Part shown: piece by piece, positions 19,740 through 64,000 of the stretch
Layout: every line of letters begins with the position of its first letter
Position numbering within the stretch: position 1 is the stretch's first letter
NCBI GenBank assembly: GCA_964016885.1
Contig: OZ024743.1
Coordinates: 87,048,001-87,112,000 of the forward strand
Length of the DNA: 64,000 bases
Direction: 5' to 3'
DNA from: Eledone cirrhosa
Lineage: Eukaryota
Program-made: the position numbers and the translations under genes
The notes under the pieces: model-generated
What the model saw: the letters and a program-made list of their open reading frames with translations, nothing else
Told to the model about the DNA's origin: nothing
The model's database searches: none

Positions 19740-20280
19740 AAAAAACAGCGATAATATTGCTTTATGCTGAACTCCATATCTTTTGTTGAGTTTTTTTCGG
19801 AATGTTTTGACTCATTCTGACGCCACTATCCCTGTTCTCCATGTGTGTTTATTATCTTAATTCCGCACGAGGTGTAACTAGCTTTTAAATATCCTTTTGG
19901 CATATTTTAGCAGTGGTTTTGGTTAACGTGTTGAGCTCTACTGATGAACGACTCCAACCGTGACTAACTCCACTGAAAGGTTTCGTGAAATAGTATTTTT
20001 AAGACTATATAGACCATTTGTAGTTTTCCCAAATTGAAGGATGAGTATTTACTCTTAATTTTATTCTGAGTTAAGATTCTATTGTTTTTTCCCTGGATTA
20101 CATAAAATTTGTGGATAAAATTTCTGTCTTGACTTTTTTTGAATTGGGATTGAATTATTTTCCCATATCTTACGTTAAATATTTTCCATTTTGACGTTAT
20201 AGTGACTTATATATTATGAAATACTGTTGGCTTCTTGCTCACATTAATTTCTCTATTTTCATTTATATTTTCATTTATAT
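19740..20280 (+). mobile_element. ~550-bp HHR element family F. Copies: 19740-20280, 31700-32202, 38452-39010. HHRs: 19935-20015, 31862-31942, 38682-38760
   Basis: GCTCTR-CTGATGA-ACGA..TCGY-GAAA-TAGTCTT..AAGACTA-TH-YAGAGC in three diverged, colinear copies. Confidence 0.88.
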
Positions 20281-23690: not shown

Positions 23691-23894
23691 CCCTTTTTTC
23701 TCCTTTTTTCCCCGTTCGTCTCTCACCTAACTCTTTATCTTTCTATTTCATCTTATTTCTAACTCTATCCTCTGATGAAGGTCTGGTGTCCGAAACGTTA
23801 AGACTCTTTTCCTGCTGTTTCAAGCGTTAAACTAATATATTTCTTCAATGTAGTATATCGTTTGACTTGTTATTTCTGTTTAATTTTCATCCCC

Positions 23895-23984
<90 letters not shown>

Positions 23985-23992
23985 TATAAATA

Positions 23993-26260
23993 TATATTTA
24001 TTAAAATAACAGATTAAAGTTTAAGCAAAGAATCGCTGCTTTCACCCTTAACGGGATCTTCTGAAACTAACAAAGTCAATCTGTAAACGCAGAACTGGAT
24101 ATTTCAAAAAACGTTGCAACCGGAGGAAGACAGGAAGACGATACTTTGGTTCGTGGTAACGTTCGCTGGCAAAGAACGGGAAAAAACGAATAATACGTCA
24201 TTAATAGGAGCGGTGAAAAACAATTACGCGCAAAGACAAAACCACGTTTATGGTATAAAAGAGGTCGTAGACTAATGTTCTCTTAGGTGGTGCATAGAGA
24301 CGTTCTCTGGCAATGAACGAAAAAACGAAGATAATAAGTCATATGTGGAGCGTGGAGAACAATAGCATGCAAAGACAAAACCACGTAAATGGTATAGCAG
24401 AAATCGTAGACTAAAATTCTAACTAGGAGACCAAATGAATCTCCGCTACAGAGTTAAGAACAAAGTAAATAAATACAATACAGAGATAATAGAAACAAAT
24501 AAATACATACACGCAAACAGATACGTACATACACAAGCATACGCAAAACCTTAGTCTTCAATTTTATTATTATTACTATTTGGCTTCTTCGGTTGAGCAC
24601 TCTACTGACTTATATTCATCATGCAGAAACAACATCTAAATATTTCTACAAAGAACATACCCGTACCAAGCAGGAAAACATACCTAAAACTCCTGATACA
24701 GAAAACAGACGCGTTCATTAAAAGGTTGCGCTGGTGTGCCTTTTATTTCGATAATCCGCGAAAAGCAGACAACAAACAGGATAAATTTGGATTTATAACC
24801 TATAATAACCCTCCGTGGAACCCAGCATTGCTACCCTTCGAAAATGATGTCTTGGAACTCATTCGGAATATCAAATTTCGGAATAGGAGCAATTCCTTCC
24901 AGCTAGACCTGAAGAATAGAATTCGTTCTATTAAGGATTCTAACGCAGTGCACGTCCATTCCGACAAAACTGGCAACCTATATCAAGTGGAGCGCAGTAC
25001 TTACCATCAACTACTACATAATGCTATAACTAAGGATTACCGTAAAACTAATCGGTGCGTCATCAATGAAATCAACGATGCTGGGTTTAAAATCACATCT
25101 GATCTCAACATCCTGGACCGGACCGAACCTCTGGACACTATCTCTCCCCACTTTACCCTGAAGGATCACAAATCCAATTTTCCGAACAACCCCTCTATTC
25201 GGCTTATTAACCCTACGAAGTCCGATTTAGGTAGACTTAGTAAAACGATTCTTGATAGAATTATACCTGAAATTAGAAGTTTGGCCCCTCTCGCACTGTG
25301 GAACAATTCTTTCGCGGTGATTGATTGGTTCAACGGCATATGTAACAAGGAACATTGCCGTTTTATCCAATTCGACATCAACAATTACTACTCCTCCATC
25401 ACTTTACCACTTCTCCTTAGAGCTATCAATTTCGCTAAAACACTCACAGTGGTTAAGGATTTTGAAGTTGATGTCATCCTTAATGCCCGAAAGTCGGTGA
25501 TTAATTTCGACGACTCTACTTGGATTAAAAAATACAATAGTACCCCATTCGACGTGAGTATGGGCGCCAGTGACTCTGCGGAGGTTACTGATCTTATTGG
25601 CCTTTTCCTTCTTTTCTCTATCAAGGACGAATTCCCCAACGCGGGCGGTGGTTTGTACCGTGACGATGGTCTTTTGACCATGACTAAGTGCGGACCTCGT
25701 GCTTGCGACAGGTTTAGAAAAGAACTCAAAGCCTTCTTTAAAGGCTTCAACCTCTCTATACAGGTTGAGGCTAATCTCTCGGTCGTTAATTACCTCGACG
25801 TTACCCTCAATTTATTGAATGGGTTGTATTACCCGTATAGAAAGCCGAATGATACGCTTAATTACATAAGTAAGCATTCCAACCAATCCTGCCAGCATAA
25901 CCAAGAACCTGGTAAGAAACGTTTCGTTGAGGCTTTCCCGTCTTTCCACCAACGAGCGCATTTTCAACGACCATTCCACTTATTACAATGAAGCTCTTGC
26001 TCGAAGTGGATTTGTCGATAAGGTAGCATATACAGAGTACGAAAATAGACCTAGAAGAAATAGATCCCGTCGCATTTGTTGGTTTAACCCACCATATAAT
26101 ATGGAGGAAGATCCCGTTAAGGGTGAAAGTAGCGATTCTTTGCTTAAACTTTAATCTGTTATTTTAATAAATATTTGCTCTACGGTTCTTATATATTTGA
26201 TATATATTTTCCTTATCGAGCCCTCTTTGGATTTTAGTCTTCAATTTTATTATTATTACT
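23993..26260 (+). mobile_element. Penelope-like element (Naiad-like): inverted upstream terminal repeat at 23993-24550 and a 3' terminal repeat at 26106-26260
   Basis: The RT ORF is flanked by inverted copies of gaagatcccgttaagggtgaaag..gcttaaactttaatctgttattttaataaata. Both ends lie in (TA)n. Confidence 0.9.
24621..26100 (+). pseudogene. PLE reverse transcriptase, frameshifted near 25885; GIY-YIG domain absent
   Basis: Motifs KNIPVPS..FIKRLRW, SDKTGN, FDINNYYSSI, FDVSMGASDSAEV, GLYRDDGL, YLDVTL and YRKPN. The second frame gives YNEALARSG..WFNPPY, then jumps into the terminal repeat. Confidence 0.9.
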
Positions 26261-27575: not shown

Positions 27576-28583
27576 GGAAAAGAATGAAATGAAACGAATT
27601 AAGCCGTACAGTGTTCGGCAACCATTGTCGCCCTTTTGTTCAACACTGACAAAGGAACGATGAACTAGTTTCAAGCTTATTAGCTATCGTCAGCATCGTA
27701 TACCTTCCTGTCAGATGATTGAACGTTTGAAAGTATATACTTTCCTTATGCATATTAACGGCTGAGCAGCCTAATTTGCATATCGAGTGAGTTAGTCGGC
27801 CGGGCGTACCGAAAATAATAAATGGAAAAGAATGAAATGAAATTTCATTTCTCACTCTTAGTACGGCTGATACTTAAATGTAAGTATGTACGCGTACATA
27901 CATATATGTATACAGACGTACAGTAGTATGTATATATATACATACATGCACATATATATATATGTACGTATGGGTTTACCGAACATTTATTATAATGTTC
28001 CGTTTGTTTGTAAACAAACAGCCCGAATTAAGCCGTACAGTGTTCGGCAACCATCGTTGCCCTTTTGTTCAACACTGACAAAGGAACGATGAACTAGTTT
28101 CAAGCTTATTAGCCATTGTCAGCATCGTATACCTTCCTGTCAGATGATTGAACGTTTGAAAGTATATACTTTCCTTATGCATATTAACGGCTGAGCAGCC
28201 TAATTTGCATATCGAGTGAGTTAGTCGGCCGGGCGTACCGAAAATAATAAATGGAAAAGAATGAAATGAAATTTCATTTCTCACTCTTAGTACGGCTGAT
28301 ACTTAAATGTAAGTATGTACGCGTACATACATATATGTATACAGACGTACAGTAGTATGTATATATATACATACATGCACATATATATATATATGTACGT
28401 ATGGGTTTACCGAACATTTATTATAATGTTCCGTTTGTTTGTAAACAAACAGCCCGAATTAAGCCGTACAGTGTTCGGCAACCATCGTTGCCCTTTTGTT
28501 CAACACTGACAAAGGAACGATGAACTAGTTTCAAGCTTATTAGCCATCGTCAGCATCGTATACCTTCCTGTCAGATGATTGAA
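27570..28583 (-). mobile_element. Retrozyme-like tandem array: 429/431-bp unit, ~2.3 copies, HHRs at 27657-27699, 28086-28128 and 28517-28559
   Basis: Near-identical direct repeats. Minus strand ACGATG-CTGACGA-T-RGCT-AATA-AGCT-T-GAAA-CTAG-TT-CATCGT. Confidence 0.9.
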
Positions 28584-41399: not shown

Positions 41400-43325
41400 T
41401 ATATTGTTATACTTGGGAAGGGTCATATTGTTGTAATAATATTGCCAGAAATAATAACAGAACACACTCACTGTTTGGTTGGTTTTCGCTTCTGTATCTT
41501 TTATATCTCCACAGTTAATTCATTTGGTCCTCAATGTTTATCATTGACTGACCAACAGTCAAAAATACAGATATAATATAGATATCAACACATATATATA
41601 GTCTAACATAGTTCTTTCGTTGCACATCTGCAACATCATCAGTGGTACTATTATGTTCCTCCTGTTGTATTGTATGTCTACGCCATTTTTATTTTATCTG
41701 TTTATTTATTTATTTATTTTTGTCTTCTCTGCGCATGCGTTTGTGTGTGTGTATAGTGTTTGGTGTGTGTTCGCGTTTGGGTGACTGTTTTGGTTATTGT
41801 ATTCTATATTAGTTTACTAGTGTGTGTTTATATGTGTTTGTTGTTATTGTGCTTGTGTATATATATATTTTTTTTTAAATATTTATTTTAAGTCAGTATT
41901 GTTTGTTTGGGTGTTGTTGTTATTCCATTCATTTTATCTGTTTAGCTTTGGCTTTCTAAGCCCTATTTTGCTTGCCTCTCTGATTTGCCTATCTGCTGGG
42001 TCATTTCTATGTTTAAATATTATTTTAATTTCCATGTTGTCTATGTTACCGTCATATTGTTGTCTGGTGTGTTCGTATACTACTGAACCGTTTTTTGTCC
42101 TTTTAATTCCCCCCCCCCCCCCCCCCCAGTGTTGGTCTATCCTTTCTCCTATGCTTCGAGCTGTCTCGCCTATGTATGTTGTTGTCATGTTTCTGCAAGT
42201 ACCTTCTGTACATCTTATGCTATTATGCGTTTCTAGTTTTACAGTTTATCTGGGGGTTTACTTTACATATAACACATTTCCTATTAGTACAGTGAGTTTT
42301 CTTAAAAGGGTAGGTTTTGCTGATCAGGGATTTTTAAGTGGGTCTTTCTCAGGGCTTTTCTACACTGGGTAGCGTCCACGAACATGACACTCTGGTATCT
42401 CTGGTTGTCGTACCATGAGGTGGCTTTCCCTATCTTATGTTTAGTCCTATCTAAGCTATTCCATGAGTTGCTCCTGTATAATGGGCAAATTCCTTTCATG
42501 TCCAGTTCTATGAGGGTCTTATACTTCTCCGTCGCTCCTTTGTATACTCTGAATCTGTCTCTTTGGTTGTAACCAGAGAACTGCATGCGGTTGATGAAGT
42601 GTTGGATGTGTCTTTCCATTTCTGTTGGGTCGCACATGTGGGACACGTTCTTCATCACTCGTACCAAGTCTGCGACCAGAATATTAAACTTAGCACTACT
42701 GGACATTGCTGAGTTTTTGAGTATCAGGTATTTGGACGCCATAGGTTTAGCGTAGTGTAAGCGGTGAATTCGGGCCCTCTCGTCTATAGTGTTAATCCAA
42801 ACACATATAAACACACACTAGTAAACTAAGATAGAATACAATGACCAAAACACAGTCACCCAAACGCGAACACGCACCAAACACTATACACCCATGCAAA
42901 CGCTTGCGCAGAGAAGACAAAAATAAATAAATAAATAAATAAAAATAAATAAATAAATAAATAAATAAACAGATAAAATAAAAATGGCGTCGACATACAA
43001 TACAACAGCAGGAACATAATAGTACCACTGATGATGTTGCAGATGTGCAACGAAAGAACTTTGTTAGACTATATATATATGTGTTTATATCTATATTATA
43101 TCTGTATTTTTGACCGTTGCTCAGTCAATGATAAACATTGAGGACAGATGAATTAACTGTAGAGATATAATAGATACAGAAGCGAAAACCAACCAAGCAG
43201 TGGGTGTGTTCTGTTATTATTTCTGGCAATATTATTACAACAATATGACCCTCCCCAAGTATAACAATATTTGTTTCGACACACGATTTCATATCAAAAA
43301 CCTCGCAAAACAAATTCATCGCCGT

Positions 43326-60814: not shown

Positions 60815-60883
<69 letters not shown>

Positions 60884-60978
60884 TATTTATTAAAATAACA
60901 GATTAAAGTTTAAGCAAAGAATCGCTGCTTTAACTCTTAACGGGATCTTTGGATTTTAGTCTTCAAATTTATTATTAT

Positions 60979-61041
<63 letters not shown>

Positions 61042-61184: not shown

Positions 61185-64000
61185 ATTGTTATACTTGGGG
61201 AGGGTCATACTTGTTTAATAATATTGCCAGAATTAATAACAGAACACACTCACTGTTTGGTTGGTTTTCGCTTCTGTGTCCTTTATATCGGTTAATTTAA
61301 TCTATTCGGTCCTCAATGTTACCATTGACTGACCAACGGTCAAAAATACAGATACAATATAGACACAAACACATATATATATATAGTCTAACAAAGTTCT
61401 TTCGTTGCACATCTGCAACATCGTCAGTGGTGCTATTATGTTTCCTCCCGTTGCATTGTATGCCTACGCCATCTTTATTTAGTCTGTTTATTTATTTATT
61501 TATTTGTTTATTTTTTTATCTTCTCTGCGCATGCGTTTGCGTGTGTGTATAGTGTTTTGTTTGGTGTGTGTTCGTGTTTGGGTGACTGTGTATTGGTTAT
61601 TGTATTCCATCTTAGTTTACTAGTGTGTGTTTATATGTGTTTGTTGTTATTGTGCTTGTGTATGTATTTATTTATTTATTTATTTATTTATTTATACTTC
61701 TCTTGGGTCAGTGTTGTTTGTTTGGGTGTTGTTGTTATTCCATTCATTTTTTCTGATTAGCCTTGGCCTTCTAAGTTCTATTTCGCTGGCCTCTCTGATT
61801 TGCCTATCTGCTGGGTTATTTCTATGTTTATATATTATTCTAATTTCTATGTTGTCTATGTTACCGTCGTGTTGTTGTCTGGCATGTTCGTATAGTACTG
61901 AACCGCTTTTTCGTCCTTTTAGTTCCCCGCTGTGTTGGTCTATCCTTTCACCTATGCTACGAGCTGTTTCGCCTATGTATGTTGTGGTCATGTTTCTGTA
62001 AGTACCCTCTGTACATCTTATGCTATAGACTACGTTTCTAGTTTTACAGTTTATCCGGGGGTTTACTTTACATATGATACATTTCCTATTAGTAGAATGG
62101 GTTTTCTTAAAGGGGTAGGTTTTGCTGATCAGGGATTTTATGGTGCTTCCTGGCTTTTCTACCACCTTAATCTTTAAGTGGGTCTTTCTCAGGGCCTTTC
62201 TACACTGGTTAGCTAAGTTCCCTCTAGGGGTAGCGTCCACAAACATGACACTCTGGTATCTCTGGTTGTCGTACCATGAGGTGGCTTTACCTATCTTATG
62301 TCTAGTCCTATCTAAGCTATTCCATGATTTGCTCCTGTATAATGGGCAAATTCCTTTCATGTCCAGTTCTATGAGGGTCTTATACTTCTCCGTCGCTCCT
62401 TTGTATACTCTGAATCTGTCTCTTTGGTTGTAACCAGAGAACTGCATGCGGTTGATGAAGTATTGGATGTGTATTTCCATTTCTGTTGGGTCGCACATGC
62501 GAGACACGTTCTTCATCACTCGTACCAAGTCTGCGATCAGAATATTAAACTTAGCACTACTGGACATTGCTGAGTTTTTGAGTATCAGGTATTTGGAGGC
62601 CATGGGTTTAGCATAGTGTGAGTGGAGAATTTGGGCTCTCTCGTCTATAGTGTTAATCCAGAGTTCCGTGTCTAATATAGGTAGTCTATTGTTAGGGTGT
62701 TTGGAAAGGTAGTCGATAGTTACAGTTATACTCTGGTGCATGGAATTAGCTATCTGCTGGATGCTTTCCATTGTGCTACGTTCTAAATCAAACTTGTTAG
62801 TGCTCTCTTGTGGCGATGTCCTTATTACTATATTGATGTCGTCTACGTAACGAGAGTACATGATGAGGTCTATGGAGCTCTCATCAAGGAGATCTTTGAG
62901 TCTCCTTTCCCACCATACTATAAAAAGGTTGGCAACGTCACCAGCTATGCTGACGCCAATGGCTGCTCCCTCGTTTTGGGTGTAGATCTTCTCGTTGAAC
63001 TTGAATATGTGGCCCTTTAGGGTAGTTTTGATACTAGCCCCTATTGCATGTGCGACCATTTTTCTTACCTGATCATTGTTTTGGGGGTCCGTATAGCTTT
63101 GGTCCACCAAATCCACCTTCCCATGGGGGTCCTTTTTGCCATTGAGGTTATGGTGGGGGTTCTACCTCTTATGGGTCTACTGGGGCAGAAACGTCTAAGG
63201 ACATGGCTGTCTAGGTAGTCAATGTCGTAGGTAAGTCTAAGTAGGAGGCCCAGTTCGTCTGTGTCGACGTCGCAGAACTCCACCTCACTCTCAATGATCA
63301 TCTTCACACATTTTTCCACAGCAAAATCAATGTTAATGGATAGGTACAGTGATACCACATCCATACTGCCTATTATGCAGTTGGATAGGTTCCTGTTTTT
63401 GTTGCACTCACTGATTCTGCTGAGGAGGTCCTCTGTACTGTCACATACATATGGGGACATCTTGATTATGGGGCGTATAACCATTGAGAGGAAGTAGGAG
63501 ATCCTGTAGTTGCTAGCGATATTTGCTCCGCATACAGGTCTTGTTCGTGGTCCTGTTATCGGGGCGTTATCCTGTCTTGTCGAAGGTGGTAGAAAAGCCA
63601 GGAACCACCATAAAATCCCTGATCAGCAACACCTACCCTTTTAAAGTAAAGGCAAAACCGACTCTTGTAAATTAAAACCCCGGATAAACTGTAAAACTAG
63701 AAACGTAGTCTATAGCATAAGATGTACAGAGGGTAGTTGCAGAAACATGACAACAACAAACATAGGCGAGACAGCTCGTAGCATAGGTGAAAGGATAGAC
63801 CAACACTGAGGTGAACTAAAAGGACAAAAAAACGGTTCAGTACTATACAAACATGCCAGACAACAACACGACGGAACATAGACAACATAGAAATTAGAAT
63901 AATATCTAAACATAGAAATGACCCAGCAGATAGGCAAATCAGAGAGGCCAGCGAAATAGAACTTAGAAGGCCAAGGCTAATCAGAAAAAATGAATGGAAT
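61185..64000 (-). mobile_element. Penelope-like element, 5'-truncated at ~63580, with an inverted 3' duplication at 63582-64000 and an HHR at 61385-61435
   Basis: 63582-64000 is the reverse complement of ~61737-62167. The terminal repeat matches 12988-13600 and 41400-41930. Confidence 0.93.
61692..63550 (-). pseudogene. PLE RT + GIY-YIG endonuclease ORF, frameshifted near 63100
   Basis: TRPVCGA, GSMDVVSLYLSI, YTQNEGAAIG, YSRYVDD, LPILDTELW, C..C...CKTRNVVYSIRC..YIGETARSIGERIDQH..RQIREA. Confidence 0.93.

Follow-up and report, generated by a model that had tools for sequence, protein, structure and literature searches.

Adenine at core position 4 of a hammerhead-like motif in a family of Penelope-like retrotransposons of Eledone cirrhosa

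The question

Why do Penelope-like elements (PLEs) keep hammerhead ribozymes? Catalytic mutants of the anole PLE insert normally in vitro and cleavage requires protein (PMC11167929), and Naiad and most Chlamys elements spread and thrive without canonical hammerheads (PMC8557442). A family in Eledone cirrhosa offers a natural experiment on this question: its hammerhead core carries a change that is expected to cripple cleavage, yet the family numbers at least 24,000 copies and its fold is apparently under selection. If the motif cleaves, the hammerhead consensus needs widening. The window, meaning the whole 64,000-nt stretch analysed, is C4:87048001-87112000 of the 3.0-Gb genome, and positions below are counted within it.

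The motif and its predicted fold

The motif and its parts, as read from the minus strand and from folding of a longer piece, are:

24068-24018, minus: hammerhead-like motif, type I, AGTTT-CAGAAGA-T-CCC-GTTAA-GGG-T-GAAA-GCAG-CGATTCT-TTGC-TT-AAACT
24009..24084, minus: extended type I hammerhead fold, from folding of the longer piece
24084-24076 with 24017-24009, minus: distal stem I, 9 bp, pair probabilities 0.76-1.0
24075-24069, minus: U-rich bulge, 7 nt
24068-24064 with 24022-24018, minus: proximal stem I, 5 bp, pair probabilities 0.05-0.08
24057..24063, minus: core C3-A4-G5-A6-A7-G8-A9, with the non-canonical A4 at 24062
24044..24056, minus: U10.1.U11.1 mismatch, 3-bp stem II and 5-nt loop II
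24023..24043, minus: G12-A13-A14, the A15.1-U16.1 pair, four more stem III pairs, 7-nt loop III and U17

The letters bear out the initial annotation, which had read this minus-strand sequence with A at core position 4. CAGAAGA, with C3 at 24063 and A4 at 24062, replaces CUGANGA; the six other core positions fit C3-U4-G5-A6-N7-G8-A9, and position 4 alone deviates, so that the motif is a variant and not a canonical member. G12-A13-A14, the A15.1-U16.1 pair and the NUH site (GAAA, CUU) are present, as they are in all four subfamily consensuses described below. The cut is predicted between 24023 and 24022, after U17, which ranks as a sub-optimal cleavage-site base. The R10.1-Y11.1 closing pair is absent and a U.U apposition takes its place, leaving stem II only 3 bp long.

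All 22 pairs drawn in the extended fold are Watson-Crick or G.U, and three helices surround the core, with stem I open. Its distal 9-bp part, beyond the 7-nt bulge, was absent from the earlier description of the motif. Folding energies do not single the structure out: the 51-mer is as stable as its shuffles (z -0.03) and at minimum energy adopts a fold other than the hammerhead, the hammerhead fold of the extended sequence lies 2.1 kcal/mol above the minimum (-13.5 versus -15.6 kcal/mol), and the proximal stem I is not favoured thermodynamically (pair probability about 0.07). A contact between loop II and the bulged stem I extension could buffer A4.

A 24-nt core pattern matches four times in the window and never in 100 shuffles (0.00 expected), one of the matches being a 5'-truncated sense copy at 26107. 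Reading the other copies confirmed CAGAAGA at 43665-43715, 44756-44806 and 15858-15907, as had been noted; the accompanying statement that all three stems pair holds for the copies at 24018 and 44756 and fails for those at 43665 and 15858, where stem II is broken. Descriptors of the CUGANGA kind, as used in PMC8557442, exclude A4, in line with the expectation that standard descriptors would miss the motif. Rfam gave eight matches in 23700-24200 at E up to 10, none of them a hammerhead. It equally missed a canonical CUGAUGA at 23772, so the miss carries no information on A4. Over the whole window a hammerhead was absent among the matches listed (150 of 216).

The host element and its clade

The copies of the element read in the window, the first of them a composite of three parts, are:

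23990..24549, minus: inverted, 5'-truncated 3'-end copy (pLTR) with the motif, ending in (TA)n, 96.6% identical to 2947-3507 of locus L063
24551..26107, plus: sense copy, a 5' leader followed by a Hydra-type reverse transcriptase (RT) ORF, with ATG at 24621, DKT and YRDD
26107..26258, plus: sense motif copy from G5 on, its 5' core lost, with an optional tail of about 90 nt and a (TA)n end
43638..43849, minus: short 3'-end copy with A4, stem II decayed
44727..44875: mini fold-back insertion, with the motif from the 5' strand of stem I on the minus strand (44727-44807) and an inverted tail
15830..16012: old-subfamily fold-back insertion, with the A4 motif on the minus strand (15858-15907) and a truncated partner on the plus strand
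60878..60980: mini fold-back insertion truncated within the core, position 4 absent

The composite insertion thus joins an inverted copy to a truncated sense ORF copy, which is rejoined to the motif at G5 (26107). The sense ORF has a frameshift near 25890 and breaks off after WFNPPYN, without endonuclease and 3' UTR; the optional tail behind it is the 5' leader of the ORF. L063 has the motif twice, about 200 nt before the ATG and about 0.9 kb behind the stop, a direct pLTR arrangement. The motif is sense to the ORF, tandem copies place it about 200 nt before the next start codon, and the unit measures about 3.3 kb. Within the 3' UTR a segment of about 125 bp is directly repeated, at 24159-24281 and 24300-24420 (79% alike), and this repeat is common among copies. 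At two unlinked loci (L272, minus, near 452; L292, minus, near 283) the 3' UTR runs into other sequence at the same junction and the motif is missing, possibly a chimeric subfamily without a hammerhead.

Could a clade for which no hammerheads are reported be hiding one here? The terminal repeat had been called Naiad-like, and here the annotation is contradicted. The endonuclease of Naiad elements is N-terminal and their motif is DKA (PMC8557442), whereas the ORF at L025/L061 runs from RT to a C-terminal GIY-YIG endonuclease (IVYK..YIG), and the single ORF at L063 begins with the RT region. By eye, L061 and L063 show DKT, RWR (K to R), CNCMNRADC, CDLC and CKH, a CCHH not being seen; the CxCX5C linker and the CxxC and CxH around E and N match the Hydra-clade definition of Craig et al. 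2021, whose marks include DKT, RWK, CxCX5C, CxxC and CxH (PMC8557442). (TA)n stands at both ends of the window insertion, and most sampled copies end in it. A canonical hammerhead near the 3' end is a further mark of the clade; in its expected place stands the A4 motif. By endonuclease position and motifs, then, the host is assigned to the Hydra clade of Penelope-like retrotransposons, and with Naiad identity rejected the reading as a hidden hammerhead in a clade reported without them falls away. The likeness to Naiads described in PMC8557442 extends to (TA)n targets, inverted 5'-truncated copies and very high copy number. Pfam gave neither an RT nor a GIY-YIG match for the element's ORF.

Relatives of the protein carry canonical cores where the region can be read. 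Seven metagenome loci match it at 35-41% amino acid identity, and five have a CUGA motif behind the ORF, the other two ending too early or lacking the region. In four of the seven the motif is nearly identical to that of Hydra-1_aMil, and the closest loci (38% identity) are among these; the fifth carries a different CUGA motif. A pattern scan of the metagenomes gave no match. The ends of 25 other Hydra-type ORFs yielded few readable motifs: CUGA was read behind L153, L353 and L358, and none of the 25 ends gave a convincing case of another A4 family.

Position 4 across the genome

Is A4 an accident of a few copies or a property of the family? A 23-nt pattern from G5 onwards has 24,554 exact matches in the genome, and its reversed control has none. 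Where the four upstream bases are fixed as well, there are 20,173 exact copies, of which 19,964 have A at position 4, 90 have T and 119 have C or G (of these last, the 100 listed were counted by eye and comprise 38 C and 62 G). T, the canonical base, is comparable in number to C and G together and so stands at mutation level; CTGAAGA is far from being the majority form. Older subfamilies agree. A relaxed pattern, in which the core is fixed, gave 187 matches, from subfamilies with other loops; of the 100 listed, 94 have A at position 4, two have T and four have G. The upstream flank alone found 58 old copies; after two segmental duplicates were dropped, 56 were aligned, and in the 53 that reach the site position 4 is A in 45, T in one, G in one and a gap in six. 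The claim that A4 is no product of decay after insertion is therefore upheld, by the exact copies and by the old subfamilies alike. A4 is also old, given the divergence of 14-15% between old copies and their own consensus.

A descriptor with position 4 left free was applied to 464 kb (the window and 40 evenly spaced 10-kb stretches) and gave 27 matches: 18 with T, from other families, nine with A and none with C or G. Eight of the nine A matches belong to this Hydra-clade family and one is a chance match. A sister subfamily with a canonical core was sought and rejected, as the TTCTGA matches listed (100 of 1,046) have the family's own young or old loops. Nor was a T4 subfamily seen, 30 exact T4 loci being scattered point changes or junction products. 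In one composite insertion (L074, G000:C9:23472000-23481999) each of the three motif copies carries T4, and there a reverted template likely transposed once. Four contig runs were aligned, and no difference at position 4 (L063:3428) was among the rows listed; two of the runs, under other organism labels, consist of near-identical pieces at very low depth and were excluded as evidence on other species.

The 26 motifs from 25 Hydra families in File S2 of PMC8557442 are all CUGA, with A4 in 0 of 25. As CUGA is found in all 25 published families, comparison of the sequences indicates that A4 is derived in this lineage.

Constraint on the fold

Four subfamily consensuses were built, two from young copies retrieved by the flank alone (29 and 25) and two from old ones (25 and 22), with nine young and nine old copies left unassigned; divergence from the own consensus is 3.7, 7.2, 14.8 and 13.8%. 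Between these consensuses no stem site varies (0/42) and no core site (0/14), whereas 8/19 sites in loops, bulge and N7 and 60/259 in the flanks do, a count that also takes in alignment shifts and the anchor region (stems versus flanks, Fisher p 9e-5; core versus flanks, p 0.045). The old consensus set against the young copy gives the same picture, with changes at 0/42 stem, 0/14 core, 7/20 loop, bulge or N7 and 72/350 flank sites (stems and core versus flanks, p 1.4e-5; core alone, p 0.08). N7, the free core position, is the only core position changed between subfamilies. The consensuses are related and grouped by few diagnostic sites, and the split between the old ones uses N7 itself.

Stem covariation and conservation had been proposed as a check on the motif. 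The fold has been retained, in that the stems are invariant, but covariation was not seen: with 0/42 stem sites varying there is no compensatory pair across the four consensuses, and the one change within a pair is from G.U to A-U, in 17 of 54 old copies. The pattern suggests that selection acts on the fold. Since the stems are invariant and do not covary, constraint on primary sequence would give a similar picture. The test for the core is marginal (p 0.045, and p 0.08 for old versus young). Of selection for A4 itself there is no sign, its persistence being expected by chance, as about 77% of flank sites are likewise unchanged.

Copy ends and junctions

If the motif cut the element's RNA efficiently, where would copies end? 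The 3' ends of 100 copies, sampled without centring on the search, lie for the most part at two distances past the predicted cut, one of about 25-30 nt and the other of about 115 nt (a peak at +110 is an alignment artefact of TA repeats). Copies thus read through the predicted cut, which means that uncut RNA gets copied. Nor are 5' ends enriched at the cut: the estimate is about 330 there (820 pattern matches, 12-13 junctions in 30 sampled) and about 320 one base upstream (735 matches, 13 in 30), weak evidence in that the count overlooks junctions preceded by T and ran without a positive control. The cleavage-competent anole ribozyme likewise left no reads at its site (PMC11167929).

Instead, 5' ends cluster at the 5' edge of the motif, where proximal stem I begins (24068-24070, minus, in the window). 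A junction falls within 14 nt upstream of G8 in 35 of 104 copies, comprising 25 inversions, nine flank or unassigned junctions and one sense join; fold-backs at the near-palindrome TTC-A-GAA are counted on both arms, and sets found with a 5'-fixed pattern were left out. Genome-wide, the four bases before position 4 are lost in 4,381 of 24,554 copies (18%). At the 5'-end pile-up the old-subfamily loci L295-L352 read TCAGTT, which resembles the arthropod initiator. The 5' edge is possibly a transcription start, which would yield short, SINE-like copies.

What the motif may do

CUGA forms a uridine turn, and in a full mutational scan of a type III construct all its single and double changes except the C3-G8 swap gave low activity (PMC9901934). 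Departures are nonetheless on record: a viroid U4C hammerhead is weak in vitro and sufficient in vivo, U10.1.U11.1 is the best tolerated mismatch, and tertiary contacts are proposed to offset variant cores (PMC3088659). PLE hammerheads cleave poorly in vitro in any case (PMC4209133). In the young subfamilies A4 also completes a competing helix with U11.1-A15.1 (the core with G12-A14), at a probability of 0.39-0.40 against 0.00-0.02 with U. In the old ones this helix reaches at most 0.03, so it is not a conserved switch.

The reading preferred here, with slightly better than even confidence, is that the motif folds as a hammerhead and cuts slowly or with the help of the element's protein. U4A would have arisen once, before the old and young subfamilies split. 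By weakening the uridine turn it would damp cleavage, and damped cleavage would be tolerated because uncut RNA serves as the insertion template. What keeps the three-way junction may be residual or protein-assisted cleavage, its use as a handle by the RT-endonuclease protein, or the two together. A bolder form would have the A4 hammerhead still cleave, with the bulged stem I or the RT-endonuclease replacing the uridine turn and A4 also holding the core in an off-state helix until protein binds; this is unlikely. Were it true, a protein-switched ribozyme would reside within a 20,000-copy retroelement, and descriptor searches would miss whole families.

Could the motif be catalytically dead, with its primary sequence kept as an internal promoter, transcription start or protein-binding site and the hammerhead look inherited? 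The lack of covariation, the 5' ends and lost bases at the motif's edge, the initiator-like TCAGTT of the old subfamilies and the success of Naiad and most Chlamys elements without canonical hammerheads would all suit such a role. It appears doubtful all the same, because the pattern of change tracks an RNA structure and not a linear motif: change hits loops II and III, the bulge and N7 and spares both stem arms (56 invariant stem and core sites beside 8/19 variable ones).

Improbable to much the same degree, and perhaps a touch more so, is a fully competent natural variant, in which A4 is offset by the long stem III together with the bulged extension of stem I and the monomer cleaves itself at useful rates. 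The other core bases, the A15.1-U16.1 pair and the NUH site are indeed kept in four subfamilies, stem III has 5 bp and a 7-nt loop against loops of 0-3 nt in published Hydra motifs, and offsetting tertiary contacts are of the kind proposed in PMC3088659. Against this stand the type III construct of PMC9901934, in which no single or double change rescued CUGA mutants, the further sub-optimal U17 and U.U mismatch, the competing core helix that A4 adds in young subfamilies, and the lack of an excess of copy ends at the cut.

A neutral relic is quite improbable; on this view a master copy lost its ribozyme activity to A4, and the remaining sequence has yet to decay. This would accord with T4 copies that stay at mutation level and never form a subfamily, and with the L074 insertion, where the reverted form could transpose yet did not spread; the flanks, however, changed at 23% of sites and the stems at none (p 9e-5), and A4 is as old as the divergence of the old copies implies. 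A gain of A4 as a TTTCAG splice acceptor behind a pyrimidine tract is very improbable and was rejected: the U-rich tract and TTTCAG are present and an intron of Drosophila Penelope ends at helix I (PMC4209133), but no spliced copies were found among the 35 junctions near the site, which are the inversions and joins listed above, the one sense join not being GT-AG.

Relation to known hammerheads

As a sequence, the A4 motif adds a core variant to a ribozyme class and a retroelement clade that are both known. With the type I pLTR hammerheads of the Hydra clade (PMC8557442) it shares the sense strand, the place near the 3' end, the short stem II closed by U.U, U17, (TA)n targets and the protein motifs of the host; by eye, File S2 has U.U closing in 14 of 25 Hydra families and U17 in 10 of 25. 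It differs in A4, in the 5-bp stem III with its 7-nt loop and in the extended, bulged stem I, and its unit of about 3.3 kb exceeds the 'generally <3 kb' given for the clade.

The metazoan PLE hammerheads of Cervera and de la Pena 2014 (PMC4209133) resemble it in pLTR location, in many solo truncated copies and in low expected activity. Their fixed core variant U3-A8 is a compensatory pair swap, whereas here a uridine-turn change stands uncompensated, and unlike those minimal hammerheads the present motif has a stem III that could support a monomer. Among the variants of Perreault et al. 2011 (PMC3088659), which include viroid U4C, phage A6C and U10.1.U11.1, there are also single changes at near-invariant core bases, and U4C is a precedent at position 4; here the base is a purine, fixed in about 20,000 animal retroelement copies over several subfamilies. 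PAc, the Poseidon element of Anolis (Frangieh et al. 2024, PMC11167929), likewise has two 3' ends, from two RT starts, that define an optional tail, and inserts from uncut RNA; it belongs to another clade and has a canonical core and demonstrated protein-assisted cleavage.

A natural U4A hammerhead was not found in the literature searched, represented in part by its texts; the PLE hammerhead variants of Lunse et al., which lie outside it, may bear on the point. In particular, U4A is absent from the text and supplements of PMC3088659, figures aside, and was not found in the available portions of PMC6155905, PMC7229834, PMC6765202 or a bioRxiv retrozyme preprint. The case suggests that other PLE families described as hammerhead-less could hide variants at position 4.

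Other repeats in the window

The window holds further hammerhead-like motifs. Canonical CUGANGA minimal motifs of other PLE-like families stand at 23772(+), 18718(+), 59678(-), 21467(+) and 27027(-), the first of them 200 bp from the A4 motif with a (TA)n tract between the two. Canonical cores also mark other repeat families in the 64 kb, at least five in number, at 43028(+), 43401(+), 41642(-), 61427(-) and 13291(-); at 19941(+), 31868(+) and 38688(+); at 27693(-) and 28553(-); at 44343(+), where Hydra-type U.U closing goes with CUGA; and at 46426(+). Outside the window, locus L073 carries another Hydra-type ORF, followed at about 2100-2230 (+) by a hammerhead-like motif whose stem II has a very long insert and which, in this copy, has U at position 3.

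A second Hydra-type RT ORF fragment, at 44945-45325 (+), is 45% identical to the protein of the main family. The open frame of 489 aa at 61695-63161 (-), with a weak RVT_1 match (E 0.003), is probably another retroelement. Tandem arrays of 34-bp and 50-bp units, their middles 94-98% alike, occupy 7410-8389 and 51711-52710.
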